From contig CAVOFT010000001.1 of assembly GCA_963695095.1 (NCBI GenBank), forward strand, positions 1-64,000: a stretch of DNA of 64,000 nt, read 5' to 3'. Below the pieces are notes generated by a model that had not been told where the DNA came from, made no database searches, and saw nothing but the letters and a program-made list of their open reading frames with translations. Position 1 is the stretch's first letter. Each line of letters starts with the position of its first letter. The stretch is from an uncultured bacterium. Its GTDB lineage: Bacteria > Krumholzibacteriota > Krumholzibacteriia > JACNKJ01. Below, piece by piece: positions 2,038 to 18,977 of the stretch. Both the position numbers and the translations under genes were made by a program.

Positions 2038-2085
2038 GTGAACAGCCTGCGCTCGGCCGTGCCGTGGAGGGAAGGGTCGAACGGC

Positions 2086-2773
2086 TCAGACCACGGCCCC
2101 GAACGCGGAGCCGATCAACGCGGTGACGACCATGGCCAGCGCACCCCAGAACGTCACACGAACGGCCGCTGCGACCATCGGCGCACCGCCGGCGCTCGCC
2201 CCGACTGCACCCAAGGCGGCGAGGAAGACGAGTGCAGTGATCGCGACGAGGGCGATCTGTGCCGTCCCTGCTGCGAGCGCAGCGGCGAGCAAGGGCAGCG
2301 CGGCACCCACTGCGAACGTCGCCGCCGATGTGACGGCTGCTTGCACCGGACGTGCAGCCATCGTGTCGGAGATCCCCAACTCCTCGCGCGTGGGTCCCGA
2401 GCGCATCATGAGCCGTCAGTCCTTCGGCGACTTGCCGGGCGAGGTCGGCATCCAGTCCTCGGGCCTCGTACATCGAGCTCAGCTCGTCGAGTTCTCGTTC
2501 GGGTTCGTCGCGCAACTCGGTCCGCTCGCGTTCGATGTCGGCGGCCTCCGTGTCGGCCTGCGAACTCACCGACACGTACTCCCCCGCCGCCATCGACATC
2601 GCGCCGGCGACCAGCCCGGCCATGCCCGCCACGAGCACCTCGCTGCGCGATGCGCCGGACGCAGCCACGCCGATGATCAGGCTCGCCGTCGACACGATCC
2701 CGTCGTTGGCGCCGAGCACCGCTGCACGCAACCAACCGATCCGATGGGTGCGATGAACCTCGCTGTGCGACAT
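2086..2773 (-). CDS. VIT1/CCC1 family Fe/Mn transporter (frameshift near 2390)
   Basis: WLRAAVLGANDGIVSTASL and AGAMSMAAGEYVSVSSQ motifs; C-terminal half REELGIS..ARPVQAA is in ORF 2086..2409. Confidence 0.9.
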
Positions 2774-3069
2774 GACGGCTGACCTCCGCTGACAAACGTG
2801 TGCTGGATCCGGGGCGCAACGCGCCGGGGCACCGCAACACTACGCAGCGCTGGCCGACGTCGTCCTCCGAACGGTGCGGGACCTTCTTCCCTTCACGCCG
2901 CCGTGACGTCATCGGATGATTGGAACATGAGCCATGACGCGGTCAGCGGTCAGGTCGGCTCGATCGCGGTCGACGCGCGGGTGGGCCACGAGGGCACCCG
3001 CATTCGCTGACCACGACCACCGTCCCCGACGTCGGGATCGACAGCGAGCGACGACGCGCAGCTGCGCCC

Positions 3070-5380
3070 TCACCGCTCGGAGGGCACATCGAGGGTGATG
3101 CTCGTCAGCAGCTCCTCCTCCTGCGCGAAGTGCAGCCGGAGGATCGCGTCGAGCGAATAGAGGATCCGGCGTGCCTCGCTGCGATCCTCGTCGGCGAAGC
3201 CGTCGATCGATGCATCGTCGACGAGCCGATCGAGTAGCGAGGCAAGATGGAAGATCTCGCGGTGGGTGCGGCTCATCGATGCGAGCGGGTCGTTTCCGCC
3301 GAGCCGTTCGGCGACCCCGGGGTAGATCTGCGACTCGTCTTCGCGCTCGTGTGGCAGGACATCTTCGGAGACCCGCGCGCCACGTCGCGGAACGATGCGA
3401 GCGCGGTCGCTTCATCGGTGGAGTCCAGGATTCCGGCGACAGAGCGGAGATCCTCGAGCACGAGCATCAGTGGTCCGTGTCCCTCTGCGAGCTGACGGCT
3501 CCACGACTCGGGCACCGACCCGGTGTGCCGAAGCGACCGAGGTGGGCGGAGCGCGCGCAGCGCCGTCCCGATCGCCAACACGTCGATCACCTCCTGGACG
3601 AGCGGCGCCACCGACGGGTGCGAGCAGCCCGACGGCAGCGGCGCCCATCCCGATCACCGACAGGCCCATACCGAGCAGCACGCTCTGGCGGGCGATCGAC
3701 CGCGCCCGCTTGGCGATCACGACACCAACCGCCAACCGGTCGAGCCGATCGACGATCAGCACCACATCGGCGGCCTCCGACGATGCCGTCGCACCTCGGG
3801 CGCCCATCGCCACGCCGAGATCGGCTGCGGCCAGCGCCGGCGCATCGTTGACACCGTCACCGACCATGACGGTGACCCCGGGCCGTTCCGACGACTCGGC
3901 GCGCACCACCTCGAGTTTCTCGGCCGGAGTCCGATCGGCGACGACCTGATCGATCCCCAACGACACCCCGATCGGTTCGGCCACCTCCAGCCGGTCGCCG
4001 GTCACCATCACCACCCGATCCACGCCCGAGCGCCGCAGCGCCCGCAACGCCGCAGCGCTGTCGGCGCGCAACTCGTCGGTGAACAGGATCAACCCGACCG
4101 GTTCGTCGTCGACGATCACGACCGTTGCGCTGCAGCCCTCGCGCCGAGCCCGACGCTCGGCGGTCACCAGCCACGGCGGTCGTTCCTCGGCGTCGATCGC
4201 CGTGAGCGCACCGACCCACACCTCGTGACCCCGGACCGTTCCGCCGACACCGCTCCCCGGCTGCTCGACCACGTCCCGTCGGCTCGACGAGCGCCAGGCC
4301 TCGATCCCGGGCCTCGCGGACCAGCATCGCGGCCAACACGTGCGGCGACGCTTGTTCCACCGACGCCGCGAGAGCGAGCACGTCGGCCGCCTCGCTGCCG
4401 GGCGAGGTCGCCACGGCGACGACGTACGCCCGGCCGGCAGTCAGCGTGCCCGTCTTGTCCAGCAGCACCGTGCGTGTCTGCCCCATCGCCTCCAACGCCG
4501 CCCCGTCCTTGACGACCACGCCGTTGCGGGCGGCGCACGCAATCCCCGACACCACCGCCACCGGTGCGGCCAGCACCAGCGGGCAGGGTGTGGCGACCAC
4601 CAGCACGGCGAGCATCCGCGTCGAGTCGCCCGTCAGCAGCCACGTGCCGCCCGCGATCAAGAACACCGCGGGGACGAACATCACGGCGTACCGGTCGGCC
4701 AGGCGTACGAACGGTGCCCGGCCGACGCCCGCGGACTGCACGAGCTTCACGATCCCCGCGTACGAACTCTCCGACGCCGACGCCGACGCCGACATTCGGA
4801 ACGCTCCTCCGGCGTTCAGCGATCCGCTGCGTGCCAACTCGCCCACCTCACGCTGCACCGACTGGGCCTCGCCGGTGAGCACCGACTCGTCCAGCACCGC
4901 CGACTCGAGCACGGTGCCGTCGACCGGCACGACCTCTCCGGGCTTGACGAGCAGCACCTCATCCGGCGCCACCTCGTCGACCGGCACGGTCTCGAACGAA
5001 CCATCCACCAACCGGTGGGCGACCTTCGGCGCCAGTGACAACAACTCCGACAGCGACCGCTCTGCCCGACGATGAGCGTATTGCTCGAGCGCGTCGCCCG
5101 ACGCCACCATCAACGCCAGGATCACCCCGGCGAGTGCCTCCCCCATCACCATTGCTGCCACCAGGGCGACCAGTGCCACGACGTCGACGGCGACGCGTCC
5201 TTCACGCAGCCGGGCAACCGTGAGCACCACCAGATCCACCACGACGACGCCCGACGCCACCGACCAGACCGCGACGGCAAGTTCATCGGCGCCGGCCATC
5301 CAGCCGAGCGCACCCACCACCAGCGCGACGGCCACCAGGGGCAGCAACGCGCGGCGTCCAGCCGCCAGGGCAGTGGTCAC
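3070..5380 (-). CDS. Heavy-metal P1B-type ATPase, P1B-5-like, with C-terminal hemerythrin domain (several frameshifts)
   Basis: LTGE, VVATPCPL, DKTGTLT, MVTGD, GDGVNDAPAL and QEVID motifs spread over ORFs 3857..5380, 3412..4272 and 3273..3611. Tail THREIFHL...LRLHFAQEEELL fits hemerythrin (ORF 3070..3276). Confidence 0.88.
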
Positions 5381-5474
5381 GGGACCAGCCTCACCGGTCG
5401 CGCTGGCGCCGGCAAGAGCCCATGGTCACCGAGCGACCCCGTGGTGGGCCTGTGGAGCTCTTGGGAATAGTGAT

Positions 5475-5830
5475 GTGCGTGTCGATGCGGTGGCGACCGA
5501 CGACACAATGGTGCGTTCAGTGATCATGGTGGTCGACACCGCCCAGGCGGTCGCGATCGGTCTCGGTCTCCTGCTTGCGATCCGGGTGTTGAATTCCGGC
5601 GGGCACGGACAGGCCTTCACTGCGGACAACGTCCGGCGGATGACGTCGATCGGACGGCTCGCGCTCGCCTTTCTTGCCGTATCGGTCGTCGAAGTGGCCA
5701 CGACGTTGTGGGCACAGGAGCGTCTCGGTACGGGTTCATGGTTCTCCCAGGTGTCGTTCGTGTCGGGCATCGCTGCGTTGGCGGTGTTCGCACTTGCCCA
5801 GGTGTGGAGCCGCGGCGACGTACCGCGCAC
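5475..5830 (+). pseudogene. DUF2975-like membrane protein fragment
   Basis: GQAFTADNVRRMTSIG and AVFALAQVWSRG are DUF2975-like; no clear start, and the usual C-terminus is replaced by the promoter of the next gene. Confidence 0.55.
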
Positions 5831-5844
5831 CGAACCGAACCAGC

Positions 5845-5864
5845 GCGTTGCGTATATGCTACGC
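5845..5864 (+). promoter_or_regulatory. Near-palindromic operator overlapping -10 (TATGCT) of the leaderless HTH-MNT gene
   Basis: GCGTTGCGTATATGCTACGC matches its reverse complement at 16 of 20 positions; TATGCT at 5855-5860 lies 6 nt before ATG 5867. Confidence 0.55.
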
Positions 5865-5866
5865 CC

Positions 5867-6358
5867 ATGGTTGACGCAGCACTGCTGGTCCGCTCCGCAC
5901 GAGAGCGAGCCCACATGTCCGCTCGCGACCTGGCCGCTGCATCAGGTGTCTCGGCATCGACGGTGACCCGGATCGAGCGTGGCGAGGTCAATCCGACCGT
6001 CGTGATGCTCGAGCGGCTCCTGCAGGCATCGGGAAACCAGCTCGACGTGGTCGTCTCACCGCGCCCACTGCGGCCGACGCTGGCCGAGTTGCGCTCCCAC
6101 CGGAGCACGATCATCGGCATCGTCGAGTCGTTCGGCGGCAGCAACGTGCGCGTGTTCGGATCGGTCGCACGCGGCGACACCCACGACGACTCCGACATCG
6201 ACGTGCTGATCGACGTCCCAGCCGGCACTGGCCTGATCACCATCGAGCGCATCGCCGAGGCAATCGAAGCAGCCGTGCCGTGGCGAGTCGATGTCGTGAC
6301 CAGTGGCGCCGCGAGCGGCCGGATGGCACACATCCTCGATGAAGCAGTTGAGCTGTGA
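5867..6358 (+). CDS. XRE-type HTH fused to minimal nucleotidyltransferase (MntA-like antitoxin)
   Basis: N-terminal HTH (SARDLAAASGVSASTVTRIERG) and C-terminal VFGSVARGD..DSDIDVLID (GSx10DxD). Confidence 0.88.
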   Translation: MVDAALLVRSARERAHMSARDLAAASGVSASTVTRIERGEVNPTVVMLERLLQASGNQLDVVVSPRPLRPTLAELRSHRSTIIGIVESFGGSNVRVFGSVARGDTHDDSDIDVLIDVPAGTGLITIERIAEAIEAAVPWRVDVVTSGAASGRMAHILDEAVEL

Positions 6359-6451
6359 ACGACGATCGACGACCTGGAACACGACCTGCCTCACCTCGAA
6401 CAGCAAATCCGCCAGCACCTCGACGACGCAACACTCGGAGACGCTGACTGA
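6355..6451 (+). pseudogene. Internally deleted HEPN/DUF86 (HepT-like) toxin remnant
   Basis: GTG overlaps the MNT stop (GTGA) and reads VNDDR; an out-of-frame DLEHDLPHLEQQIRQHL follows, resembling the DUF86 C-terminal helix. No RxxxxH core. Confidence 0.5.
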
Positions 6452-6512
6452 TTCGGCCGTCTGAGGCGCCCACGACCCCAGCTGCTGCAGCCCCCTGGTC
6501 GCAAGCCTGTTC

Positions 6513-6546
6513 TCCGGACGTTCGTGGAGTTCGGCGAACGTCCGGA
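6513..6546. repeat. 12-bp perfect inverted repeat
   Basis: TCCGGACGTTCG (6513-6524) / CGAACGTCCGGA (6535-6546). Confidence 0.85.
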
Positions 6547-6555
6547 AACGGACTT

Positions 6556-6573
6556 GTGGAGCTAAAGGGAATC
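6556..6573 (-). other. tRNA-Ala 3'-end-like fragment (putative attR core)
   Basis: Minus strand reads GATTCCCTTTAGCTCCAC, like the T-loop 3' half plus acceptor stem of tRNA-Ala; no tRNA body upstream. Confidence 0.55.
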
Positions 6574-6641
6574 CGCACTCCATGTGGCACGAACACGATC
6601 ACAGCAGGTCAGAGCACATTTCTCGTCGCTCCGTCTCGAAT

Positions 6642-6665
6642 GGTGGAGTAACCGGTGGAGTAACC
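6642..6665. repeat. Tandem 12-bp direct repeat, possible integrase arm-type sites
   Basis: GGTGGAGTAACC x2, about 70 bp from the putative att core. Confidence 0.65.
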
Positions 6666-6799
6666 CGCTTCACCCGAAGCTCGCCGATCCGTCTTTGACT
6701 GCCTGCCTGACCAGGCGCTGTGTAAGGTCCTGCCCGTTCGAAGCTCGACGTTCATCGCGTCCGATCCGGCGTGCAGGCGTCGGCGGGTTCGGCGGGCTC

Positions 6800-6920
6800 G
6801 CGAATGCCTGGCGTCACGCTTGGATCGATATGCCCGGGATTATCTCGCGTCACGGTTGGGCCGCAGTCGCACGCGGGATCTCGGTTCGGATGCGTGATTT
6901 CGAGTGTCCGTTATCGGGCG
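6800..6920 (+). repeat. Cassette-boundary repeat unit A (two copies of motif 1 plus motif 2)
   Basis: GCGAATGCCTGGCGTCACGCTTGGATC (6800-6826); GGGATTATCTCGCGTCACGGTTGGGCC (6836-6862); GATTTCGAGTGTCCGTTATCGGGCG from 6896. Confidence 0.7.
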
Positions 6921-6972
6921 GCGCGTCGACGTGTCGTTCCGGACCGAAATTGTGCTCAGACCCTGAACGGAC

Positions 6973-7755
6973 TTGAGGCAAGATGATCGCGTGCTGCAGT
7001 CCGATCTCGAACGCGTCAGACTCCTCTGGCGAGACCTGACTGACGCGCCCGACGGCTTCGCCCAGAACGGATTGACGATCACCGGGTCCGATACTCATCG
7101 AGCATCTCCGCCAGGATGGACCGGAATCGTCGAGTTGCAGGGGGACGTGGTTGTCGCATGCTCCGCGAACGAAGTCGAGTGGGTTCGGAGGGCACTCACG
7201 GACGTGCGCCCCGATCGGCTGATCGAGCCAGGGCTCGTGGATGAACTCCTTCACCCAACAGACACCCTCGGCCCAGCCCTGCTGTTCTACGGGCGAATCT
7301 CGACGCAACGACTACCGGTACCCAGACGCGTCATTGGACCCATTGACATCGCCGACCCTCACGTGCGCGCCGTGCTCGAAGCAGCATCGCAAGCTGAACG
7401 CGATGAGACAGGCTTTGACGAAACCAGCTCAGGCGCATACCTCGCGTTTGGCGACGACGGCGGCCCGGCATCGGTGTGCGGATGGACTCAGTGGCCGCAC
7501 CGCATTGCCCATTTGAGTTCTCTGACCGCCACGCCCTATCGACGGAGCGGGTGCGGCCAGGCCGCAGCTGCGAAAGCACTCGAGGCAGCCTGCGACCGCG
7601 GTCTCCTGCCGCAATGGCGAGCCGCATCCTGGAACGCTGCATCCATCGCACTCGCACGTCGCCTCGGGCTCGTACTGGTCGGGCACCAGTACAGCGTCAC
7701 CTTCGATCACAACCAGACCGACAGCCAACACGCCGACTCGACCGAAGACATGTAG
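6973..7755 (+). CDS. GNAT family N-acetyltransferase (start may be GTG 6991)
   Basis: LTATPYRRSGCGQAAA acetyl-CoA motif; PQWRAASWNAASIALARRLG. Confidence 0.85.
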   Translation: MRQDDRVLQSDLERVRLLWRDLTDAPDGFAQNGLTITGSDTHRASPPGWTGIVELQGDVVVACSANEVEWVRRALTDVRPDRLIEPGLVDELLHPTDTLGPALLFYGRISTQRLPVPRRVIGPIDIADPHVRAVLEAASQAERDETGFDETSSGAYLAFGDDGGPASVCGWTQWPHRIAHLSSLTATPYRRSGCGQAAAAKALEAACDRGLLPQWRAASWNAASIALARRLGLVLVGHQYSVTFDHNQTDSQHADSTEDM

Positions 7756-7779
7756 TGCGCTGCCTGGGTGCTTCTGGCG

Positions 7780-7863
7780 GTGAAAGCGCGGCGCCACGTC
7801 TGGGCCGCGATGCGGCACTCGCTGACTGCGATCCGGCGGGATTCCGAGCGGGGCGATGTCGGG
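7780..7863 (+). repeat. Cassette-boundary repeat unit B
   Basis: GTGAAAGCGCGGCGCCACGTCTGGGCC (7780-7806), then GCGATGCGGC; GATTCCGAGCGGGGCGATGTCGGG from 7840. Confidence 0.75.
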
Positions 7864-7893
7864 TGCCTCGGAGTGGCCTGCTCGCCAAGGTGA

Positions 7894-8361
7894 TCAGAGC
7901 CTGAGCGCGTGAGCGACGCTTCGAGGAGCGAACCCAGATCGTTCATACAGGCGCCGGGCGTTTGCATTCTCGGAGTAGCTGTCAACATGCACCTCGACGC
8001 AGCCGTGGTCGCGTGCCCAGTCGATGAACGCCTCGGTGAGTCGTCGTCCGACGCCCGCTCCGCGTGTGTCGCTACGCACGTACATGCTTCGCAGCACGCC
8101 GAAGGTCACCGGCTGACGCGTCGGACTGGACTGTTCCATGTATCCCGCGACATGGCCGACAACTTTGCCGTCGAGTCGAGCAACCAGCACGACTGAGTTG
8201 TCGTCGGCGAGCAGCCGCTGGAAGTCGGCTGCTGCCTCTCGCGCTGGCCATGTCACGTCGGCGTGTGGATCATGCACGCCGGCGTCCTCGGCGAAGAGCA
8301 GCGCTTCGAGTTCGACGAGCGATTCGACGTCACCATGGTTCGCGATCTCCACACTCGTCAT
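7894..8361 (-). CDS. GNAT family N-acetyltransferase
   Basis: MYVRSDTRGAGVGRRL; NENARRLYERSGF-like ending (SENANARRLYERSGF); ATG 8361 preceded by TACGGT 7 nt upstream. Confidence 0.9.
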   Translation of the reverse strand: MTSVEIANHGDVESLVELEALLFAEDAGVHDPHADVTWPAREAAADFQRLLADDNSVVLVARLDGKVVGHVAGYMEQSSPTRQPVTFGVLRSMYVRSDTRGAGVGRRLTEAFIDWARDHGCVEVHVDSYSENANARRLYERSGFAPRSVAHALRL

Positions 8362-8480
8362 CGAGCCGACCGTAGCGAAGGGCGTCAAAGAGCAGTGCCC
8401 CGATTTCTGTTCAGGCGGCGACCCAACTCCGAAACCGGGTCATCCACGCGCACCGTTTGGCTCGATCTACGATCGCCACC

Positions 8481-8969
8481 ATGGTCTCGTTCGAGCCACT
8501 CGCCATCGACGAAGCGAACGCGTTCCTCGGTGAGAGCATCCGAGAGTTCGTCTCCGAACGTGTCCCAGCAGACCACGTCGACGCCGGCGTCGAGAAGATG
8601 CGCAAAGAACTGGGCCAGCGACTCCTGCCCCACGGGATTCTGACGAGCGGCCACCGCTTCGAGGCCATCATCAGCAACGGCGAGGGTGTCGGCCGGGTCT
8701 GGTTCGGCCCACTGAAGGACGACGAATCCGACCTGTACATCTGCGACATCAGCATCGCCGCGGAGCGCCGACGTGAAGGTCATGCTCGGGCCGCCGTCGA
8801 AAGGATCCTCGACCATGCCAGATCGAATCACTTCGCACGAGTCGGCCTCACCGTCACCCAAGCCAATACCGACGCCATCGATCTCTACGAATCACTTCGG
8901 TTCGTCACCACCCGAAGCGACGTAATCGACCGCGAAATGTGGGTTGTGGTCAGCCCGCTACTCACGTAG
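8481..8969 (+). CDS. GNAT family N-acetyltransferase
   Basis: ISIAAERRREGHARAA; ANTDAIDLYESLRF; TACGAT 7 nt before the ATG. Confidence 0.88.
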   Translation: MVSFEPLAIDEANAFLGESIREFVSERVPADHVDAGVEKMRKELGQRLLPHGILTSGHRFEAIISNGEGVGRVWFGPLKDDESDLYICDISIAAERRREGHARAAVERILDHARSNHFARVGLTVTQANTDAIDLYESLRFVTTRSDVIDREMWVVVSPLLT

Positions 8970-8987
8970 CCGGCCGCTCCAGAAGCC

Positions 8988-9072
8988 GGGAATATGCGGC
9001 GTCACGCTTGGGCCAAAGCCGCACACCTCCTCGCCAGAGTCGGCCGGATTTTGGAGTGCGCGTCATGCGCGG
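8988..9072 (+). repeat. Cassette-boundary repeat unit C
   Basis: GGGAATATGCGGCGTCACGCTTGGGCC (8988-9014); GATTTTGGAGTGCGCGTCATGCGCGG from 9047. Confidence 0.8.
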
Positions 9073-9174
9073 TCGCCCGGCCTCGCTGTCTGCCCACTCC
9101 TGACGGTTGATCGGTACGCGGTCTGGGCCGATCGGCGTGGCTGTGCCCCGCTCGGTGTTCAGTACCGTTGCCGC

Positions 9175-9699
9175 GTGGCGCTCGAGATCCGCACCCCGGA
9201 GGTCGGCGACGCACACGAACTTGGTCGCATGCACGTACGGGCTTGGCAGGCCGCCTACGCCGGCGGGCTCATGCCGGATGAGTACCTCGACTCGCTTTCC
9301 GAGACGGACCGCGCGTCGATGTGGCGTTCCAGCCTGGAGAACCCTCCTCGAGCCAGAGCCGCACGACTTGTGGCGGCTGTCGACGACGAGGTCGTCGGCT
9401 TCGCGCTCGTTGGCCCAGCCGACAGCGATCCGGACGCGGAGGTCGGGGAGCTGTACGCGATGAATGTCGACCCGGATCATTGGGGTACGGGAACGGGTGC
9501 GGCTCTGCTCGACGCTGCCGTGGCCGCGCTTCAGGCGAGCGGGTTCGGGTCCGCAGTGCTGTGGGTCCACCCCGACAACCAACGAGCGCGCTCGTTCTAC
9601 GCCAAGCGCGGATGGATCGACGACGGTGTTGACCGCCAGCAGGAGGTGCTCGGCGTCGAGGTCCCTGAGACCCGCCTCTCGCTTGCCCTCGCTTCCTGA
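9175..9699 (+). CDS. GNAT family N-acetyltransferase
   Basis: HVRAWQAAY, VDPDHWGTGTGAALL, DNQRARSFYAKRGW; GTG 9175 preceded by TACCGT. Confidence 0.9.
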   Translation: MALEIRTPEVGDAHELGRMHVRAWQAAYAGGLMPDEYLDSLSETDRASMWRSSLENPPRARAARLVAAVDDEVVGFALVGPADSDPDAEVGELYAMNVDPDHWGTGTGAALLDAAVAALQASGFGSAVLWVHPDNQRARSFYAKRGWIDDGVDRQQEVLGVEVPETRLSLALAS

Positions 9700-9743
9700 C
9701 TCGCCGAGCGGCTTGCGCACGCCGCAGGGCGCACCGAAAGAAT

Positions 9744-9768
9744 TGATTCCGCGTGGTCCAAGTGTTCG
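9744..9768 (+). repeat. Partial boundary repeat (motif 2 only)
   Basis: TGATTCCGCGTGGTCCAAGTGTTCG resembles TGATTCTGCGTGACGAAGTGTGCG of units D and E. Confidence 0.5.
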
Positions 9769-9805
9769 ACCGGATCGCCGACCGACGGGGTGCGAGGATG
9801 CAGCC

Positions 9806-10552
9806 GTGGACGAGCGGGTGTTCGACGGTGGATCGGAGAACCACGGAGCGGTGGTGCGAGTCGGCAATACCGTTCGGCGCCCACGTGGTGCCGGCTGCGA
9901 GGTCGTCGAAGCGCTGTTGGAGCACCTCGAGCGGTTGGGATTCGAGGGATCACCACGGTTTCTTGGGATCGATCAGCAGGGCCGCCAGATTCTCGAGTAC
10001 CTCGATGGGTCAGCGCACCGCTCACCGCCGTGGCAACACGACGATGCCGCCAACGCTGTCGAACTCGGCCGGTTGGCGTCGTGGCTGCGCCGCCTGCACG
10101 ATGCCACAGCCGGCTTCGCCCCTCCGGTCGGAGCGCGACCGCGGCGAGCGTTGCCGCTGCTTGGCGACGTGTGGACGCATGGCGATGTTGGCTACTCGAA
10201 CGTGGTGTATCGACACCGGCAGTTGGTCGGGTTGATCGACTGGGAGTTCGCGGCGCCGTCGCATCGCTGCTGTGACCCCGCGGCTCTGCTTGCGGTGTCG
10301 GTTCGCGGGCCGCGCCCCGACGTGAACGACAACAGTCGTCGAGCAGCTGCAACCCGGCTCGCTGCCACTGCGATCGCAGCGGGCTATGGCATGACCGACG
10401 ATGAAGTCCAGGCGCTGCCGGAGATGGCGGCGACGATCCTTGACGACGCACGAGCCTTCCAAGGGGAGTCGATGAGCGATGAAGATCGTCATCGGTCAGC
10501 GTGGCGATCTCGATGGCTACGAGACAACACCGAGTACCTCGTAGGACCCTGA
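9806..10552 (+). CDS. Aminoglycoside phosphotransferase/kinase (APH) family protein
   Basis: VVRVGNTVRRP, THGDVGYSNVVY (Brenner-like), LIDWEFAAP. Confidence 0.88.
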   Translation: MDERVFDGGSENHGAVVRVGNTVRRPRGAGCEVVEALLEHLERLGFEGSPRFLGIDQQGRQILEYLDGSAHRSPPWQHDDAANAVELGRLASWLRRLHDATAGFAPPVGARPRRALPLLGDVWTHGDVGYSNVVYRHRQLVGLIDWEFAAPSHRCCDPAALLAVSVRGPRPDVNDNSRRAAATRLAATAIAAGYGMTDDEVQALPEMAATILDDARAFQGESMSDEDRHRSAWRSRWLRDNTEYLVGP

Positions 10553-10588
10553 GCAACGATCCGCAAGCAGCGATGCTGACGGGCACTC

Positions 10589-10669
10589 GTGAATATGCGG
10601 CGCCGCATCAGGGCCGGAGTGCGGCGACTGTTGACGCCGTGTCGTGATTCTGCGTGACGAAGTGTGCGG
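10589..10669 (+). repeat. Cassette-boundary repeat unit D
   Basis: GTGAATATGCGGCGCCGCATCAGGGCC (10589-10615); TCGTGATTCTGCGTGACGAAGTGTGCGG (10642-10669), identical to unit E. Confidence 0.85.
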
Positions 10670-10690
10670 TCGGTCGTACAGTCGCTTCCA

Positions 10691-11080
10691 ATGTCTCAGG
10701 CTGCGAGTCCCGACCAGGAACAGCGAGAGAGGCAGGTGCGCCTGATGATCATCATCGGGCTCGCGGCGGTAGTCGTGCTCGGTGGTCTGGCTGTGTCGAT
10801 CATCGGGAGTCGCCAGGTCAGCGACAAGGCCGACGATCTGCGTCAAGCTGCGAGTACCGCCATCGTCAATCCAGACCTCATTGCGATCACTGCGTACGCG
10901 ACGGACTCCGATCCGGTGTCGGAAGCACTGGGCTCCGATCGGGTCATCTCTCTTCAACAGCAGACAAGCGGACGCTGGTGCGTCGAGACTGGGGTCTCAG
11001 CCTTGCTCAGTTCGGAGACCGTGTTCTTCGTGATCGACGACGACGGCCGTTTCATCGAGACGCCCGACTGTCACCGGTAG
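10691..11080 (+). CDS. Hypothetical single-pass membrane protein
   Basis: TM segment LMIIIGLAAVVVLGGLAVSIIG; two Cys in the external domain; TACAGT 8 nt before the ATG. Confidence 0.7.
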   Translation: MSQAASPDQEQRERQVRLMIIIGLAAVVVLGGLAVSIIGSRQVSDKADDLRQAASTAIVNPDLIAITAYATDSDPVSEALGSDRVISLQQQTSGRWCVETGVSALLSSETVFFVIDDDGRFIETPDCHR

Positions 11081-11089
11081 CTGTTCGCA

Positions 11090-11176
11090 GTGAACAAAGT
11101 GTGACGTCACGCTTGGGCCGCGATGCGGCGGCGACCGCTGGCTCCAGATCGTGATTCTGCGTGACGAAGTGTGCGG
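11090..11176 (+). repeat. Cassette-boundary repeat unit E
   Basis: GTGAACAAAGTGTGACGTCACGCTTGGGCCGCGATGCGGC; TCGTGATTCTGCGTGACGAAGTGTGCGG (11149-11176). Confidence 0.85.
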
Positions 11177-11252
11177 CCGCCGTGCAGATCCGCCCGCTAC
11201 CTCAGGTTGTGGCGCCGGGCCGAAGTTGCGGCACGAAGATTGTCCGGTTCGC

Positions 11253-11280
11253 TGCAACCGAAATGTGTCTTGCTGCGTGT
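11253..11280 (+). promoter_or_regulatory. ECF-type promoter (TGCAACC...CGTGT)
   Basis: AAC-containing -35 and CGT-containing -10 at ~16 nt spacing directly upstream of an ECF sigma gene. Confidence 0.55.
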
Positions 11281-11288
11281 GTGATGGT

Positions 11289-11828
11289 GTGGTCTCGGAG
11301 GTTGTATTGAGTTCCAGGGTCGAGAATGAGGAAGACGATCGACTCGGGCTGGACGCGATCGTTGAGGCGGAGTACACGTCGATGCTGGCGATCGGGGTGG
11401 CATTGCTGCGTGATCCCGACGACGCCGCCGAGTTGGCCCAAGAGACGATGCTTCGCCTTCGGGAGCACTGGGCGGAGGTCGCCGACTTCGATCGCCCCGG
11501 GGCATGGTGCCGGCGTGTTGCGTTGAACCTCGCGACTGACATGTTGCGTGACCGGCAACGGCGGCGGCGTCTGGCCGATCGCCTCGCCGTGGCGGCCGCC
11601 GCAGATCCCAGCAACTCGTCGACCCAGCGGTATTGGGACGAGCGGTTCTGGGCCCATGTGGCCAACTTGTCAGAGCGGCCACGTAACGCCGTGGTGCTGC
11701 ACTACGTGCACGACCTGTCAGTCGTGGAGATCGCTGACACCCTGGACGCGCCGGTCGGCACGATCAAGTCAGACCTGTCGCGGGCCCGAACGCAGTTGCG
11801 GTCGATGATGGAACAGGAGACGCCGTGA
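11289..11828 (+). CDS. ECF RNA polymerase sigma factor (SigE-like)
   Basis: AAELAQETMLR, GAWCRRVALNLATD (region 2); DLSVVEIADTLDAPVGTIKSDLSRAR (region 4). Start uncertain. Confidence 0.9.
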   Translation: MVSEVVLSSRVENEEDDRLGLDAIVEAEYTSMLAIGVALLRDPDDAAELAQETMLRLREHWAEVADFDRPGAWCRRVALNLATDMLRDRQRRRRLADRLAVAAAADPSNSSTQRYWDERFWAHVANLSERPRNAVVLHYVHDLSVVEIADTLDAPVGTIKSDLSRARTQLRSMMEQETP

Positions 11829-13334
11829 CCGACGAATTCGAACAACGCGCACGCGCTGCCGGGCGACGCGTCAACGACCAAGCAGCCGCACTCGCCGACC
11901 ACAGCCGCGACCGGCATCCGGCATCGGTGACGTCGGCACGGTCGCGTTGGTTGGCTCTCGCAGCTGCGTTGCTGGTGGTGGCCGGAACAGCGTCGCTCGT
12001 GCTTGTGGCCTCCAACCGCGATGCGCAAGCTCCGGCAAACACCGCATCGACGACCAACACCAGCCCACCGCCAAATGCCAGCACCTCGACTCCCGAGAGC
12101 ACCACGGCGCTGGCGGACACCACAACGACGATCGCGCCCTCACCGGGGGCGGTGCCCGAGGACTTGCCGCTCGTGGCGTTCGAGGAAAGCGCCTGCCAGG
12201 CCCAGAGCATCGAATGGACGGAACCTGACGGACCATTCATCTGGAAGGCGTTCGCTCGCGGTATCGCCGAGGGTTCACCAGTTCAAGTGATCGCGGATCC
12301 GTCCGAGGGCGCGGCCGGACCGTTCGCCGTTGTTCTGCGCGACTACGCACCCACCCGCACCGCCGGCACCGCAGACGGCCACAGAAATCGACGGGAATCA
12401 GGTTTTCGTGAGCGTCTACGATGCACTGGACGGTTCCGGTGACATCGGCAACGGCGAGGCCGTCTGGAACCTGCCTGATGGATCGCAGGGCTACCTCCGT
12501 TCCCGCGGCCTGGACCGCGCCGACATCGAATCGATCGTCGCCAACCTCCGCCCACGGCCATCCGATCATCCGATTGCCGGCTTCGACTACGACACGAGCG
12601 AAACGCAGCCCGCACGGCTCGCCCTCGTCGCCGAGGAGACCACCGACACCCTGTCGTCATCGCGTTACTCGATCACCTGTCGCGCCACGAACGGCCTCGA
12701 CGTCCGCGTCGCAGTCATCGCCGACCAAGGCGTCGCTCCCTACGCCCTCGCGATCGACCGGCATCGTCCCGCGTGGATTGTTCGAGCCGACGGGGCCGTC
12801 TACATCGGCGGAATCGAAGCCCGCAACGCCCACGGCTCCCCGGACCCGCCAGCAGACGCGCTCACCACAATTTCTCCCGAACGATGGCAGCAACTCCGAC
12901 AGCAACCGGATTCGGGACCCCACACTCAAGCTGGCGGCGAAACGACGGCATCCTCGCAACCTGCTGACGCATCCGTTTCCCCACCACCGCCTCGAACATT
13001 CATCGACGAGCAAGGCCTGCGATGTGTGGAGTACGAAACGTCGACGGCGAACAGAGCGGCCAGCGGCGTCTGCTTCGACGACTCACACGACGACTTGGGT
13101 ATCCGGACGGTGGAAGCCGGGGATCACTATCCGAAGGCGACGATCATCGGTGGAACCGACAACGCCGATGCGGTTCGCGTCGTCATCGCGAGCGTCAGCA
13201 ACGAACAAGCTGTCAGCTTGACCGTCGTGGAGGGATGGCCGGAGCGGATCTTCGCCGTAGACCTTCCCGCCGGTGACGTCGAAATTCGACTGGAAGCCGC
13301 CGATGGACGTGTCTTGTCATCGACCTGGGCGTAG
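11825..13334 (+). CDS. Putative anti-sigma membrane protein with large extracytoplasmic domain (frameshift near 12370)
   Basis: GTGA overlap with the sigma gene; TM WLALAAALLVVAGTASLVLV; T/P-rich linker; continues in ORF 12330..13334. Confidence 0.65.
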
Positions 13335-13389
13335 CACCGGCAGGACGTCATTTCCTGAAGAGACTTCATCCCCCAAGGACTGCACCAAC

Positions 13390-13504
13390 GTGAAAGTGCC
13401 GTGCTCGGCTTGGTTGCACCGGTGAAAGTGCAGCGCCCGGCTTGGGCCTGTGCAGTGCACCCTGCCCGATCTGGATCGGATTATCGTGTGCGACTTCTGA
13501 GCGG
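13390..13504 (+). repeat. Cassette-boundary repeat unit F (two copies of motif 1 plus motif 2)
   Basis: GTGAAAGTGCCGTGCTCGGCTTGGTTG (13390-13416); GTGAAAGTGCAGCGCCCGGCTTGGGCC (13422-13448); GATTATCGTGTGCGACTTCTGAGCGG from 13479. Confidence 0.75.
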
Positions 13505-13584
13505 TTCTTCCAGCCTCGCTTGACGTCGTGCCCGCAGTGCCGGAGGTGTCGCCGCGGTGATCACTCATTCGTGCGATATGGCCT

Positions 13585-14031
13585 CTACGGGTTCGTGAAC
13601 GTGGTGCAGGCGAGCACGGATCCCCCGACGAGCTTCGAGCAGAGTTCGTAGCTGCCAGCCGCAATGTCGCCGAGGTCGAACGTGCCTGTCGCACCCGAAA
13701 GCTCACCCATCGGGACGGCCACCTCCGTCTCCTCGTCGGAATACGGAAAGAACTGTCCGATTGCCCCGTCGTCATTTGCCGTGACGAACATGCCGACTGG
13801 CTCTGCGACGCCGACCGGGGCAAGCGTTGCCATCATCGACCGAGTTTCGTCGATGGACGAGTAGTCGACGACGAGTAATCCGTCGATCATCTCCGATGGA
13901 ACCTCCAATGCTGGCGATCCACCGGCATCGGTTGTCGAAGGCAACGCCTCCCCTTGGCCACCGTCTCCAGAACCGCATGCCGCAGTAAGGAGCAGAGCGA
14001 CCATCAGGGCTGTGATTCTCCCAATACCCAA
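13585..14031 (-). CDS. Hypothetical lipoprotein
   Basis: Lipobox LTAAC after a hydrophobic signal; C-terminal Ig-like strand with two Cys. Confidence 0.7.
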   Translation of the reverse strand: MGIGRITALMVALLLTAACGSGDGGQGEALPSTTDAGGSPALEVPSEMIDGLLVVDYSSIDETRSMMATLAPVGVAEPVGMFVTANDDGAIGQFFPYSDEETEVAVPMGELSGATGTFDLGDIAAGSYELCSKLVGGSVLACTTFTNP

Positions 14032-14288
14032 CGGACGGTAGCCGCAGAGACTTCGCCTTCGCCGTCGGCTGCGCTACACCTACGGCTCCGAGGGCGGCGG
14101 CTACCCGGAGTGGACTCTGTACAGCGAAGTGCGATTGTTGATCGATCGACGCAACGTCGAGTACCAGAGACAGGAACTCAGACCGGCGCCGGGTGCGGCG
14201 CCAAGCGATGCGGCCGTGGTCGCCAGCACCACATCGTGGCTCGGCGATGTCTGACCTTGCCGACGGCCGAGCGGGTACAGTTTGCGAG

Positions 14289-14474
14289 ATGGACGTCGAT
14301 CGGATTTGGTCAGCCGCTGAACTCGAGGCGCTGACCCCCGACGAACGCGCTGCGACGATCCGAGCCGGATTCGTTACTGACGCCGACGACGTCCCGGCCG
14401 CGCTCGTCGACCGGGCCCGGCAGAAGGTTGATGCTCGCATCGCCGCCACCGAGGGTCGCCACACCCGCCAGTGA
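14289..14474 (+). CDS. Small protein, putative antitoxin
   Basis: 61 aa, leaderless (TACAGT 7 nt upstream), GTGA overlap with the next gene. Confidence 0.6.
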   Translation: MDVDRIWSAAELEALTPDERAATIRAGFVTDADDVPAALVDRARQKVDARIAATEGRHTRQ

Positions 14475-14779
14475 CCCGGCGCACGGTTCGCGTCGACCAG
14501 CAGTTCTTCACCGAACTCGACGCTCAGCTCGGCGAGACACGCGGACCCAACGGAGAGCCGTCAGCGAGCGACTTCTTGTTGATCGAACTTCCGACGATCG
14601 CCGAAACGTTCGGCGAACGCTTCGACGAGCTGCTCCGGCTCTACCCCGAGCGAGACGACTACCGGTACCTCGTCGCCGGAGGCCGCCTCGTCTACGCAGT
14701 CGTCGTCGTCGGACAACTGATCAACGAAGACACGATCTCGCTGTTCGGCATCGAGATCGACCTGCACGGACCTCGATAG
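14471..14779 (+). CDS. Small protein, possibly RelE/ParE-fold toxin
   Basis: 102 aa; N-terminal RTVRVDQQFFTELD and C-terminal YRYLV..RLVY beta-rich pattern. Confidence 0.5.
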   Translation: MTRRTVRVDQQFFTELDAQLGETRGPNGEPSASDFLLIELPTIAETFGERFDELLRLYPERDDYRYLVAGGRLVYAVVVVGQLINEDTISLFGIEIDLHGPR

Positions 14780-14902
14780 CCGCCCGATAATCACCTGCCG
14801 GAACTCGTCCTGAGGCGCCACAGATGCCGGCGAAGTGTTGGACCTCCGGCCCGATCGGGCCACCGCATAATCACTGGTTTGCGGGTGCGAGCTGGCGTGC
14901 TC

Positions 14903-16961
14903 TCAGAAGTCGATTTCGATTCCGATCGACGACCGGGTCGGTGTCGACAGCGTCGGCGGTTGGAGTTCGAGTCCTCGTCGCTGCGCCCACTGGGTGAGCG
15001 GTGCGGCCAGCTGGCTGATGCCCGGTCGGTCGTCGTGGTCAGCGAACGCGGCGGCGATCTCGACCAGCGCAGTGTTGTCGAGGTTGCGGCCGTTGGCCCA
15101 GTGCTTCCATTGGTCGAGGGCCCGGCAGAGGCGCCCGGCGTCTCGGGCAACGCCTTCGAGGTCGTTGAATTGGTCGAACATCCGCCGGGTCGAGTCCATG
15201 CGGCGGTGATCGTCGATGACGTTGTGGAGCTCGTTGACCCGGCGCCGTGTCGGTGCCGCGAGCTCCTCGGCCCGGTTGAGTCGATCCGTCGCGACAGCGA
15301 GGACGTCGCCGGCAGTCTCGACGTCGCGGCGAGCCGATCGGCGATGTACTCGACCGGCACGCCGCAGTTCATCTTGGGCCTTGCGCAACTCCGACTGTGC
15401 TTGGTTCACGATGCGTTCGGCGGTGGCGACCTGCTCGGCGAACGGCGCGTGTGCCTCCTGGGCCGTCGGCAGCTCCTGACGGGCCAACGCAACTCGTTCT
15501 CGGGCGGCGACGCGCTCGGTGTTGCGTTCGTCGAGCCGTTGCTGTGCGATGCGCCGACCTTCTTCGGCCTCGTCGCGAATCTGGTCGAACCAGTCAGGTA
15601 TCCGGACCCGCCGCTGCGGCACGCTGGCGGGGACGGTCGCTGCCAGGTTGCGGCGTTGGGCCGTGGCGGGGATGTCGGCGCGGTCGGAGAACAGGACTGC
15701 TTCGAGCACGGCTCGTGCTTCGGCGAGGTCGTGGGTGTTGGTGACGACCAGGGCGAGGTTCTCGCGTTGACCGCGGGTCATTGCCATGTACAGGCCGCGT
15801 CTCGTCGTCGCGTTGGTTGCAAGGGTGAGGCTCCGTTCCGAGGTGTCGCCTTGTGCGCCGGGTTCAGTGGTGGCGTAGGCGAGTTGCAGTGTGCTGGCAG
15901 ACGTAGTCACGCGGCAGGGTGATCGTGCCGTGTCCGTCGAGTCGGGTCACGGTCACATCGCCCTCCTCAACGGTGTCGGTGGCGGTGACGGTCCAGCGTT
16001 CACGATTCCGCATCGGCTCCCCCACCGAGGTGCGCAGACGGCGTTCGTTGCGGCACGCGTCGCCACCACGTCACCAACCATCACCCACGCATCGTCGACC
16101 TGGGCGAGCGTCGCTGCGTCGAGTTCGCCGGTGTCGAGTCGGCGTTGCTGGATGTGGTCGTTGATCACGTTGACGTGTTCGGTGCGGGTCGTGATGATCG
16201 ACAACGACTCCCCCTCGCTCCGGCACTGCTGCCAGAGGTCGCCGATCGTGTCGAGATGCTCGGCGAACGTGCCCGCCCGGATCCGGCCGTGCGCTGCGTA
16301 GGTGTCGAGTGCGGACGGGTTCCCGCGTCGCAACTCCAGCGACGCAGCCGCTTCCCACCGGTTGCTGAACCGGTGGAGATGCTCCAGCTCGACGGTCCGG
16401 CCGGTGTCGCACAACTCGAGGAACATGCCGCCCCGCCCCACCGCTTGGAGCTGGTGTGGATCACCGATCAGGGCGAGTCGCCACTGACGTTGTTCGGCGT
16501 GGGTGACGAGGCGCGAGAGATCGGAGGTGTTCAACATGCCGGCCTCGTCGACGATCACCGTCATACCCGGCCCTGCATCCCAGAAGGAGTCGTTGCTGTC
16601 TGGTCGATCGAGTTCGTAGAGGAGCTTGGCAACCGTGTCCGCGACCATGCCGGTCTCGGTTTGCAGGACACGGGCCGCCTTCGCCGTGGGTGCCAACCCC
16701 ATCACCGGCCGCTGCTGTCGGTGGAGGTCGGACACGGCGGCTTGCAGCATGCGGGTCTTGCCCGCCCCCGCCGGCCCCACCACCAACACCAACCGATCGT
16801 GTCCGGCAACCGCGGCCGCGGACGTGTACTGGCCGTCATCCAACGCGACATCGGTGATCGTGGTCGATGGTGTCGGGTTGTTGGCTTGGGCGTCGAGCGC
16901 CCAGGTGAGGATGTGTTCTTCTTGGGTGAGGATGTGCTCGCTCGTGGCCTGGTTCGTGACC
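14903..16961 (-). CDS. MobF/TrwC-like conjugative relaxase-helicase, C-terminal part (5' truncated at the junction; frameshifts near 16055 and 15915)
   Basis: TSEHILTQEE, Walker A GPAGAGKT, IVDEAGML, LIGDPHQLQAV, LAYATT..AQG.T, GLYMAMTRG, then a coiled-coil tail ending SIGIEIDF. Confidence 0.82.
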
Positions 16962-18929
16962 CAGGCGCGCAAGGCCATCCGCATCGACTGGCTCGAGGAC
17001 CTCGTCGCCCTCACCACCCAGGACGGCTGGCTGCAGATCGTCGCTGCCGGCGACCCGGCCGCGCCGATCGCCGCCGCGAGCCTGGTCGGCTTCGGCACGG
17101 CGGCGGATCCCCTGCTCCAGCGCCGCGGCAGCGATCGCTACTGCTTCGTCGCCGGCAGCACCGGCCTCAAGTGCCTGGACCTGGCCGATCCCGCGGCGCC
17201 CGTCCTGCGCGGCACGCTTAACAGCATGACCGGCAGCCCCCGCGGCCTGGCCGCTCGTGGCGACACGCTCTTCGTGCTGGCCGCCGGCTACGGCGTCCAT
17301 GCCGTGGCCACGGGCAACGTGAACGCGCTGGCCCTGCTCGACAGTGAGCCGCTCGCCGCCTCCCAGCTCCTCGACATCGCCGTCGACGGCCCGCGCCTGG
17401 CAGTGGCCGCGCAGGCGAGCGGCGTCTTCCTGCTCGACGCCGCCGACGCCGGCAACCCCGTTCCCGTCACCCAGCTCCTCGTCGATCTGGGCGGGGGCCC
17501 CCTCGCCGTCAAGGGCGTGCGCATCGCGGGCAGCCTGCTCTTCTGCGCCGTGGACGAGACGGGGCTCGTCGTCTACGACATCGACAATCTCGCCTCGCCC
17601 CAGCTCCTGGGCACGGATGGCGGCGACTGGTACAGCTTCGAGGGCCTCGCCCTGGACGGCGATCGCGCCTACCTCAACACCTGGGACGGCTCCTTCGCCG
17701 GCGTGCAGATCTTCGACCTGGGGACGCCGGCGGCTCCGCCGTGGCTGGGATCGACCCCCGCCTTCGACTACTGCCGCAATGTCGATGTCCGCAGCGATCC
17801 GATCGAGGGCACCTTGGTCTTCACCGCCACCGGGCACCAGGGCGTCTTCGCCCACGAGCTGATCGGCGAGGATCTCGTCCAGCGCGGCCAGCTGCCCGTG
17901 CTCAACACCTGGGCGGTCGCGGCCCGCGGCAGCGCGGTCTACATCGCGGCGGCCAATCGCGGCCTCGTCATCGGCGACTTCAGCGATCTGGACGCGCCGG
18001 TGGAGCTGGGCAGCCTCAATCTCGGCCTCTGCCGCGATGTCAAGCTGAGCGGGAACGTGGCCTTCGTCGGCGTCTACGGGCTCGGCCTGGCTGCCGTCGA
18101 CATCAGCGACCCGACCCAGCCGCAGTTGCTCGATCAGGTCAGCGGCGGCTATCAGACCGTGGGCCTGGCGATCAACGGTTCGGTGGTGGCCACCGCCGAC
18201 CGCGCCGCCGGCGTCAATCTGTGGGACGTCGGCGATCCCACGGACATTCGCTTCCTGGGCACGGTCGGCACGGGCGGCAGCAATGCCACCGACGTGGCCT
18301 TTCGCCTGGGCGACAACCTGCTCTACGCTGCCGCCGGCTCCTTGCGGGTGATCGACATCAGCAACCTCCTGGCCCCCTTCGAGCTGGCCAGTGTCAGCGC
18401 CGCGGTGCAGGGCCTGGAGCTCGGGCCCGACGGCTTCCTCTACGTCGCCCGCAACGGCGCGGGCGTGAGCGCCTTCGATCTGAGCAATCCCGCCCTGCCC
18501 GCCCTGGTCGCGAACTACGACACCGCGGACAATGCGCTGGCCGTGGCGACGGCGCCGGGCCTGGCCTTCGTCGCCGACAATTCGGCCCTGATCGCCTTCC
18601 GCACGGGCGACGCCACGGCAGCGCCGGCGACGCCGCTGCCGGCGGCTCTCGCCCTGGCTGCCTATCCGAATCCCTTCAATCCGCGCACGGAGCTGGCCTT
18701 CAGCCTGCCCGGCGCGGGGGACCTGCGCGTGGAGGTCTTCGATCTCGGTGGCCGCCGCGTCGCCCGGATTGCCGCCGGCCCGCAAGCGGCCGGCGAGCAG
18801 CGCCTGCGCTGGGACGGCAAGGACGATGCAGGCCGCGCCCTGCCCAGCGGCGTCTACCTGGCGCGCATCGAGTTCACGGGCGCTGCGGCCAGCGCCACCG
18901 GCACGAGCAAGTTGGTTCTCATTCGCTGA
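16962..18929 (+). CDS. LVIVD-repeat exoprotein with FlgD Ig-like C-terminal domain (5' truncated)
   Basis: Repeated GL.vvD.SdP..P.l units; YPNPFNPRT...WDGKDDAGRALPSGVY...KLVLIR. Confidence 0.85.
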   Translation, partial: QARKAIRIDWLEDLVALTTQDGWLQIVAAGDPAAPIAAASLVGFGTAADPLLQRRGSDRYCFVAGSTGLKCLDLADPAAPVLRGTLNSMTGSPRGLAARGDTLFVLAAGYGVHAVATGNVNALALLDSEPLAASQLLDIAVDGPRLAVAAQASGVFLLDAADAGNPVPVTQLLVDLGGGPLAVKGVRIAGSLLFCAVDETGLVVYDIDNLASPQLLGTDGGDWYSFEGLALDGDRAYLNTWDGSFAGVQIFDLGTPAAPPWLGSTPAFDYCRNVDVRSDPIEGTLVFTATGHQGVFAHELIGEDLVQRGQLPVLNTWAVAARGSAVYIAAANRGLVIGDFSDLDAPVELGSLNLGLCRDVKLSGNVAFVGVYGLGLAAVDISDPTQPQLLDQVSGGYQTVGLAINGSVVATADRAAGVNLWDVGDPTDIRFLGTVGTGGSNATDVAFRLGDNLLYAAAGSLRVIDISNLLAPFELASVSAAVQGLELGPDGFLYVARNGAGVSAFDLSNPALPALVANYDTADNALAVATAPGLAFVADNSALIAFRTGDATAAPATPLPAALALAAYPNPFNPRTELAFSLPGAGDLRVEVFDLGGRRVARIAAGPQAAGEQRLRWDGKDDAGRALPSGVYLARIEFTGAAASATGTSKLVLIR

Positions 18930-18977
18930 GCAAAGAAACCGTTCGAGAGAAACTCCTCGGGAGAGAGGTAAGACACC

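Follow-up and report, generated by a model that had tools for sequence, protein, structure and literature searches.

What are the repeated intergenic units that separate a series of unrelated genes in the genome of an uncultured bacterium assigned to the Krumholzibacteriota? The stretch analysed here, referred to as the window, comprises the first 64,000 nt of contig CAVOFT010000001.1 (assembly GCA_963695095.1), and the units lie in a small part of it between genes for acetyltransferases, a phosphotransferase, a membrane protein and a sigma factor. A preliminary description, made from the letters of the window alone, took the units to be recombination sites or insertion scars of a gene-capture system, unlike the attC sites of integrons. 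That reading is supported by the present analysis. Where loci share a gene module in different surroundings, their identity switches at a single point within the unit, TTGGGCC|G. The units are probably sequence-defined, site-specific recombination sites that bound mobile cassettes, in an array that has been imported into its present host.

Each unit is bipartite and ~100 nt in length, and six copies are found on the same strand within 6826–13504 (Table 1). Motif 1 ends in GGGCC, and motif 2 begins 31–34 nt past it, as had been described; all six units were recovered at the positions first given for them, together with the perfect 28-mer common to units D and E, which was confirmed by a repeat search. 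With up to three mismatches allowed, the motif-1 pattern GCGGCGYCACGCTTGGGCC has four matches against 0.36 expected, a number reached in none of 100 shuffles. A profile built from the six units and compared with the whole 3.64-Mb genome finds each of them with an expectation (E) value of 1e-13 to 4e-17. Its only other matches are a partial copy at 6797–6832 and a weak one on the minus strand at 14835–14877, the latter being part of a seventh, divergent unit (G). A profile from 80 units of many genomes returns the same seven places in the host and no others at E ≤ 1, all falling within one 8-kb stretch. The original statement that all the units share one strand is thus correct for the six and fails for unit G. 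Two extra copies of motif 1 (A′ and F′ in Table 1) are further additions to the original list. The isolated copy of motif 2 reported at 9744 is real, and is preceded by a decayed core, GGCTTGCGC, at 9712–9720 (read by eye). It is a degenerate unit without the first half of motif 1, and gives no match to the unit model at E ≤ 0.1.

The unit belongs to a family found in other genomes. A degenerate motif-1 pattern was scanned against one genome per species for 185,579 species, giving 115 loci that are mostly chance matches in unrelated taxa. Full bipartite units are found only in loci from metagenome-assembled genomes (MAGs) labelled Ilumatobacteraceae, Acidimicrobiaceae, Acidimicrobiales or ‘Actinomycetes bacterium’. 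The same pattern has no loci in viral contigs. A sequence-only covariance model was built from 28 units; scoring no more than 150 candidates in each genome, it gives 43, 30, 17, 50 and 136 matches in five Ilumatobacteraceae and Acidimicrobiaceae genomes (the carriers). Within the carriers the units form many clusters per genome, with a spacing of 266–5707 nt (median 1418), and 68 of the 71 pairs of neighbours <6 kb apart lie on the same strand. The copies are thus clustered in arrays both here and in the host, and not scattered singly. Their spread is patchy: sampling detected units in one of 120 further genomes of the class and in two of 40 of the family, values that are floors given the strict filters and the few candidates scored. 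In 12 donor-type arrays the genes flanking the units point either way while the units keep to one strand. Seven of the 12 arrays fetched are located near a tRNA gene, several with an adjoining integrase, and the tRNA species beside units are tRNA-Gly, -Arg, -Met, -Gln/Glu and -Pro (ARAGORN). The cargo of the carriers includes GNAT, APH, ECF sigma, methyltransferase, hydrolase, NUDIX, PIN and SUKH proteins, one beta-lactamase and numerous proteins that match no family. In many units the match to the model does not begin until positions 31–42, the first half of motif 1 being absent.

The position of the exchange emerges from comparison of the modules. The GNAT3 module of the window is 93.5% identical to a locus in an Ilumatobacteraceae MAG (G044), the identity ending ~7 nt past GGGCC. 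The membrane-protein module, extending from motif 2 of unit D to motif 1 of unit E, matches another array of that genome at 89.7% identity; gene content between the units is therefore not fixed. All pairs among 93 GGGCC junctions were compared. On the left of GGGCC, eight pairs are alike over 60 nt or more, idiosyncratic bases of motif 1 included, and their identity extends rightward by 1, 1, 1, 1, 5, 7, 11 and 16 nt. Another three are alike over at least 240 nt on the right and over just 9–25 nt on the left, where differences come within 6–7 nt of the junction. Two more pairs, identical on both sides as a result of a 3.5-kb duplication, were excluded from these counts. Identity thus switches at TTGGGCC|G in eleven pairs of loci that share a module in different contexts, from which it follows that exchange lies inside or just after TTGGGCC. 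No part of the unit is more strongly conserved than this core, with GGGCC present in 72/78 distinct units and G as the next nucleotide in 72/78. Motif 1, spacer and motif 2 each come in subtypes that combine independently of one another (permutation p = 0.87, 0.69 and 0.24), and this too fits exchange at the core. The units that lack the first half of motif 1, including the copy at 9744, may be explained by cassettes that sometimes land at incomplete sites.

An insertion sequence (IS) of the IS110 family is present as three full copies (L121, L032 and L132), located in three different units. In all three the left end lies directly after GGGCC and the right end directly before the spacer and motif 2. 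These insertions fit the role of an independent pointer to the same exchange spot.

Could ordinary homologous recombination have shuffled the cassettes, the units being conserved intergenic sequences such as insulators or regulatory elements? Motif 1 (~28–45 nt) and motif 2 (~27 nt) are long enough to provide short homology, boundaries fall in two places (the core and the beginning of motif 2), and conservation of TTGGGCCG would alone shift apparent breakpoints to the end of motif 1. However, pairs with an atypical motif 1 (e.g. GTGATTCCCGGGCACTCGGATAGGGCC) are identical through the odd bases and stop 1 nt past GGGCC. There the partner units have only the 5–7-nt core in common, too short for RecA-type exchange, which argues against homologous recombination. 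The 68 same-strand pairs of 71 and the IS110 insertions at the exact point are also better accommodated by a defined site, and the explanation is considered unlikely.

Several observations weigh against site-specific exchange at the core. One copy of a three-copy module resembles the others only in motif 2 and beyond, and its spacer differs, so that either spacers change rapidly or exchange also happens at a second point. A G-type unit breaks ~16–22 nt past the core, not at it, and the conserved TTGGGCCG limits the placement of a breakpoint to within ~7 nt. Genes at the donor loci were called by a crude rule based on third-position GC content. No circular cassette or empty site was seen. Lastly, no recombinase co-occurs consistently with the arrays. 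The integrases beside them are diverse (25–39% mutual identity), six array-linked donor-type integrases score 0–74 bits against TIGR02249, for which the cut-off is 265, and three candidates tested for co-occurrence across the carriers all failed.

The preliminary description placed the recombinase outside the window. There is none in the island that holds the array, and the only two Phage_integrase genes of the host are ~1.9 Mb away. A number of candidates for the cassette enzyme were rejected. The array-linked integrases are diverse and adjoin tRNA genes, and none is IntI-like. A 396-aa integrase family near three arrays is an island integrase that is not common to all carriers. An Xer-like recombinase inside an array (L120:6718–7761) was absent from carrier G041 in the search, and a genome that lacks units has a 61% match to it. 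The two non-Xer recombinases in G043, the smallest carrier, lack an ortholog in all other carriers, and serine recombinases were found in just three of the five. Apart from integrases and ECF sigmas, no family-less protein recurs in the arrays. One family related to the G043 recombinases provides a lead only, a full unit lying 33 nt past its stop codon in two genomes. Tyrosine recombinases are encoded in 5/5 carriers, as are IS110-type genes, and this says little because both families are common.

The 396-aa integrase (L133:8627–9817 and L135:3620–4810, both on the minus strand) is 98% identical between two species in which the surrounding DNA is ~80% identical; directly after its stop codon is a G-type unit. 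The 3.5-kb duplicated segment carries the GNAT3 cassette and is 99.9% identical between its two copies, at the contig starts of one MAG (L135 1–3563 and L136 5–3567). The two copies cease to be identical within the spacer of an inverted G-type unit. Another repeat of ~100 nt, unrelated to the units, occurs at cassette-like spacing in unit-carrying MAGs (L037 9–96, 1819–1921 and 4269–4367; L049 557–655 and 2835–2932), and may be another family of sites.

The pattern of identity suggests how the arrays could be built. The unit would function as a double-stranded site of ~110 bp, comprising motif 1 with TTGGGCC at its end, then a spacer of ~30 nt that varies, then motif 2, with exchange at or within the near-invariant core TTGGGCC. 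A cassette would start with the G after one core and continue through the spacer and motif 2, past one to four genes of either orientation, to motif 1 and the following core. If circular cassettes inserted again and again at units already present, arrays with all sites on the same strand would result. Such a scheme would call for circular intermediates and a dedicated site-specific recombinase, most likely of the tyrosine type. In its boldest version the enzyme may not be a tyrosine recombinase and may instead be an RNA-guided DEDD recombinase (IS110-type) that acts on pairs of units, an idea prompted by the IS110-type genes in 5/5 carriers and by the one IS that cuts at the crossover point. 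The system appears to be restricted to Acidimicrobiia of the Ilumatobacteraceae type, and to few of these, in which it would fill tRNA-linked genomic islands. A piece of such an array, five to seven cassettes long, would have reached the unrelated diderm host, probably on a conjugative element of which only a relaxase fragment is left.

The units have no conserved secondary structure in the searches made. There is no match to Rfam at E ≤ 1 on either strand of 5000–16000, and a distant blastn search of a plasmid collection with 6800–14790 has none either. None of the refuting conditions set by the preliminary description (copies scattered singly, a match to a known IS end or transcription-factor site, invariant gene content between units) was borne out. 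Folds of the six single units on either strand are no better than those of shuffled sequences (z −0.97 to +1.29), and RNAalifold applied to the six gives just a local stem of seven pairs, with no covariation. With DNA parameters and 78 distinct units there is no consensus structure on either strand, and the 78-unit alignment contains no long-range mutual information. A dyad around the core, noticed by eye in some spacers, was discarded on finding that it is not conserved across the 78 units.

The consensus of the attC crossover core is GTTRRRY. The units had been said to lack it. This needs qualification, since NTTGGGC fits the consensus where N = G, in 19/78 units; yet no inverse core RYYYAAC was seen in the units, and there is no hairpin. 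Given the lack of both a conserved hairpin and an accompanying integron integrase, the units are not attC sites. They depart from integrons in three tested features: the folded attC, the IntI integrase and the co-orientation of genes. They are not Xer/dif-like either, as the 78-unit alignment has no conserved inverted repeat corresponding to a 28-bp site with 11-bp inverted arms and a 6-bp centre. Both motifs contain half-site-like strings (ATTATG/TTATCGG; by eye), which are however arranged as direct repeats. Nor are the units copies of a tRNA 3′ end, the same family being present beside five tRNA species.

A high copy number in the carriers (up to 136) and an intergenic location would also be expected of selfish, non-autonomous repeats that copy themselves into intergenic gaps, similar to repetitive extragenic palindromic (REP) sequences or miniature inverted-repeat transposable elements (MITEs). 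PMC11187229 describes IS110/IS1111 elements that target REP sequences. However, the 78 units contain no conserved hairpin or dyad, either palindromic or as the terminal inverted repeats of REP, bacterial interspersed mosaic element (BIME) or MITE type, single units fold no better than shuffles, and copies are clustered, not single. Moreover, the two halves of a unit have different gene neighbours and move with them, a pattern that could not arise if units inserted whole, and many units start without the first half of motif 1. An origin of this kind is very unlikely.

Still less credible, to the point of being nearly dismissed, is the interpretation of the units as promoters or operators repeated across a regulon, such as one governed by the array's own ECF sigma factor. 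Motif 1 opens with GGAAT/TGAAA-like bases, which we take to resemble ECF −35 boxes, and four units of the window precede plus-strand genes. Set against this, units B and F are located between convergent genes, donor-type arrays have genes in either direction with units on one strand, and a promoter does not explain the switches of identity at the core.

The array lies in an island at ~5400–16960 that differs from the rest of the genome. Its GC content is 0.62–0.67 compared with 0.705 for the genome, and GC at third codon positions is ~0.7 compared with ~0.9 in neighbouring genes. No counterpart of the island was found in 40 relatives, among them two genomes of the same genus, and it contains no tRNA or tRNA fragment (ARAGORN). 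It ends in a fragment of a TraA-type relaxase gene that has ~70% DNA identity to a gene beside an array in genome G042. From 16960 on, the right flank matches a same-genus relative at 74%, and in the left flank the part coding for VIT1 (2290–2743) matches another at 72%. Synteny with relatives was not found for the left flank (1–5400), so that a search for the empty site gave none. The host has seven matches to the Omp85 family, which among control genomes matched in diderms only. Because it encodes Omp85 proteins the host is a diderm and not an actinobacterium. The preliminary assignment to an actinobacterial mobile element is therefore correct for the unit family, which is of Acidimicrobiia type, and wrong for the host, a diderm of another lineage. 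As best read from its composition and matches, the array would be a foreign island in an unrelated diderm host, with a donor of the Ilumatobacteraceae type of Acidimicrobiia. It is probably a fossil, an inactive import brought in with the relaxase remnant; the host shows no sign of a cognate enzyme, and so the array is probably inert.

Alternatively, the first 17 kb of the contig could result from chimeric assembly, in which case the array would not be present in this host. The window begins at base 1 of the contig, its left flank is not syntenic with relatives, and no public run holds above 20% of the sampled words. Host-like DNA is nevertheless present on both sides of the array (VIT1 and the right flank), which makes a chimera improbable; it would in any case change where the array lives and not what it is. 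Among public sequencing runs none contains >0.20 of the sampled words of 8000–17999. Contigs of four runs were aligned to the region; gaps in their cover are not evidence of absence, and the uncovered stretches (e.g. 10642–14113 in X2 and 7170–8037 in X1) prove nothing. The pieces of one run tile 7074–10614 with 0–7 differing letters (13 in one overlapping piece), the last of them stopping at 10614 inside the core of unit D, and those of another tile 11139–13865 with 1–3 differing letters. Parts of the array therefore exist in other samples in nearly identical form. Apparent joints from 6863 or 9025 to 11096/11150 were set aside, as their sides are <30 nt and probably come from the units of other organisms.

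The arrays most closely resemble those of integrons, especially sedentary chromosomal integrons and clusters in which attC sites stand without an integron integrase (CALINs). In both systems cassettes of one to a few genes lie between same-strand sites of ~60–140 nt, exchange occurs at a short conserved core, and accessory cargo includes acetyltransferases and phosphotransferases; like CALINs, the present arrays have no integrase of the system nearby. Site sequences are lineage-specific in both, and specialised IS110/IS1111-type elements insert into the sites (PMC4889954 and PMC11187229). Cury et al. (2016; PMC4889954) record no complete integron in the Actinobacteria genomes searched, and PMC11187229 describes relatives of the IS110 family that aim at attC sites or REP sequences. 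The present element shares with the IS1111-attC and REP-targeting IS110/IS1111 elements a DEDD transposase and insertion at one precise position of a repeat (3/3 after GGGCC), and differs in that its target is a new family of sites. Unlike attC, the units are defined by their sequence and have no conserved hairpin or R″/R′ inverted repeat, and crossover takes place about one-third of the way into the site, not at its end. No IntI-type integrase was found in the host or beside the donor arrays examined. Cassette genes lie in either direction in donor-type arrays (from crude gene calls), and each carrier genome has many arrays, mostly in tRNA-linked islands.

Other systems are less similar. Cis-mobilizable elements (CIMEs) and the tycheposon arrays of Prochlorococcus arise by tandem accretion of integrase-less elements at att sites. 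They too have small modules between direct repeats in tRNA-linked islands, with an integrase at one end, whereas the present units are not tRNA fragments and a single family is found beside five tRNA species. In pdif modules, resistance genes on Acinetobacter plasmids are flanked by XerC/D sites; rAID-1 arrays belong to the Bacteroidales. Both have gene modules bounded by short recombination sites other than attC; by contrast, the units have no conserved 11-6-11 dyad, they are direct repeats and not inverted pairs, and the arrays are not headed by a conserved recombinase gene. In the literature searched, in which subscription journals were not covered, neither the units nor any integron-like array of Acidimicrobiia is described. 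Novelty in kind is limited, because arrays of site-specific cassettes were known before; what is new is the sites, the lineage and the many arrays per genome.

We lean slightly towards the view that some Acidimicrobiia operate an independently evolved parallel to the integron, with unstructured sites of ~110 bp, crossover at TTGGGCC and export across phyla, as well as dozens of arrays per genome and site-specific IS110 parasites of its own. Integrons are the textbook route by which bacteria collect and reshuffle single genes. A second cassette system would mean that this solution arose more than once, and would explain much of the flexible genome of a lineage common in soil, sediment and water. 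The array in the window would show that such arrays can cross into unrelated diderm bacteria. The unit model would offer a searchable marker for accessory genes in metagenomes, including those for acetyltransferases, phosphotransferases and beta-lactamase, and the enzyme, once found, would provide a new pair of recombinase and site.

The features of the array are itemized in Table 1. Pfam confirms four GNATs, one APH and one ECF sigma among the cargo; the 138-aa protein and the open reading frames (ORFs) after the sigma gene match no Pfam family. The genes of cassettes 1–5 mostly run in the direction of the units, one of them being reversed. ECF sigma cassettes homologous to that of the window are present in two donor-type arrays. 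Unit G begins 25 nt past the stop codon of the minus-strand ORF upstream of it, and nearly the same 50 nt as its left part follow an integrase gene in two other genomes.

Table 1. Units, cassette genes and modules of the array, in order of position in the window
Feature	Position	Strand	Details
A′, extra copy of motif 1 with mutated core CTTGGATC	6797–6823	+	Repeat search, profile; model E 0.019
Unit A	6826–6925	+	Motif 1 6836–6862 (GGGCC 6858–6862), spacer, motif 2 6894–6921; 53.7 bits
GNAT acetyltransferase 1	6973–7755	+	PF12746, PF00583
Unit B	7764–7877	+	Motif 1 7780–7806 (GGGCC 7802–7806), motif 2 7838–7864; 58.3 bits
GNAT 2	7894–8388	−	Opposed to unit direction; PF00583, 5.6e-20
GNAT3 module	8463–9021	+	Gene ~8482–8969 and motif 1 of unit C; Pfam, sequence comparison
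Unit C	8984–9084	+	Motif 1 8988–9014 (GGGCC 9010–9014), motif 2 ~9045–9072; 49.7 bits
GNAT 4	9175–9699	+	Pfam; start inferred by eye from reading frame
Degenerate unit	9712–9768	+	Decayed core, spacer, motif-2 copy (9744); by eye
APH-type phosphotransferase	9807–10552	+	PF01636; start uncertain
Unit D	10584–10675	+	Motif 1 10589–10615 (GGGCC 10611–10615), motif 2 10644–10669; 53.3 bits
Membrane-protein module	10644–11130	+	Motif 2 of unit D, 138-aa gene 10693–11080, motif 1 of unit E
Unit E	11096–11187	+	Motif 1 11090–11119 (GGGCC 11115–11119), motif 2 11151–11176; 64.7 bits
ECF sigma factor and following protein	11310–13334	+	Sigma factor to 11828, then family-less protein in two frames, 11825–12442 and 12330–13334
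F′, extra copy of motif 1 with mutated core CTTGGTTG	13390–13416	+	Read in sequence
Unit F	13415–13504	+	Motif 1 13422–13448 (GGGCC 13444–13448), motif 2 13477–13504; 32.9 bits
Module	14246–14832	+	87.8% identical to another Ilumatobacteraceae MAG, there adjoining a plus-strand unit
Unit G, divergent subtype	14780–14878	−	Motif 1 14874–14848, motif 2 14794–14780; 26 bits, E 1.8e-6
335-aa ORF	14903–15910	−	No family; upstream of unit G
TraA-type relaxase fragment	15953–17098	−	Helicase part only

Some further features lie at the head of the array and in its flanks. A perfect tandem repeat, GGTGGAGTAACC ×2, is located at 6642–6665, ~130 nt upstream of the first copy of motif 1, and could be a protein-binding site at the array head. 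A 60-nt stretch at 6513–6573, with an 11-bp inverted repeat (CCGGACGTTCG ... CGAACGTCCGG), recurs in contigs from two further samples; these diverge on either side of it, leaving loose ends at 6513 and 6573. The single ORF at 5708–6358 fuses an XRE-type helix-turn-helix to an MNT-like nucleotidyltransferase domain (Pfam), and near-identical pieces of it are common in three of the four sequencing runs aligned. Three genes are split between frames, coding for the VIT1 transporter (1679–2773), a P-type ATPase (3857–5380 and 3412–4272) and the protein after the sigma factor (11825–13334); they are either pseudogenes or the result of indel errors in a long-read assembly. On the right, 16626–23936 encodes three tandem paralogues, LVIVD-repeat proteins with FlgD-Ig-like C-terminal domains, the C-terminal part of which has dozens of matching places in each relative genome.

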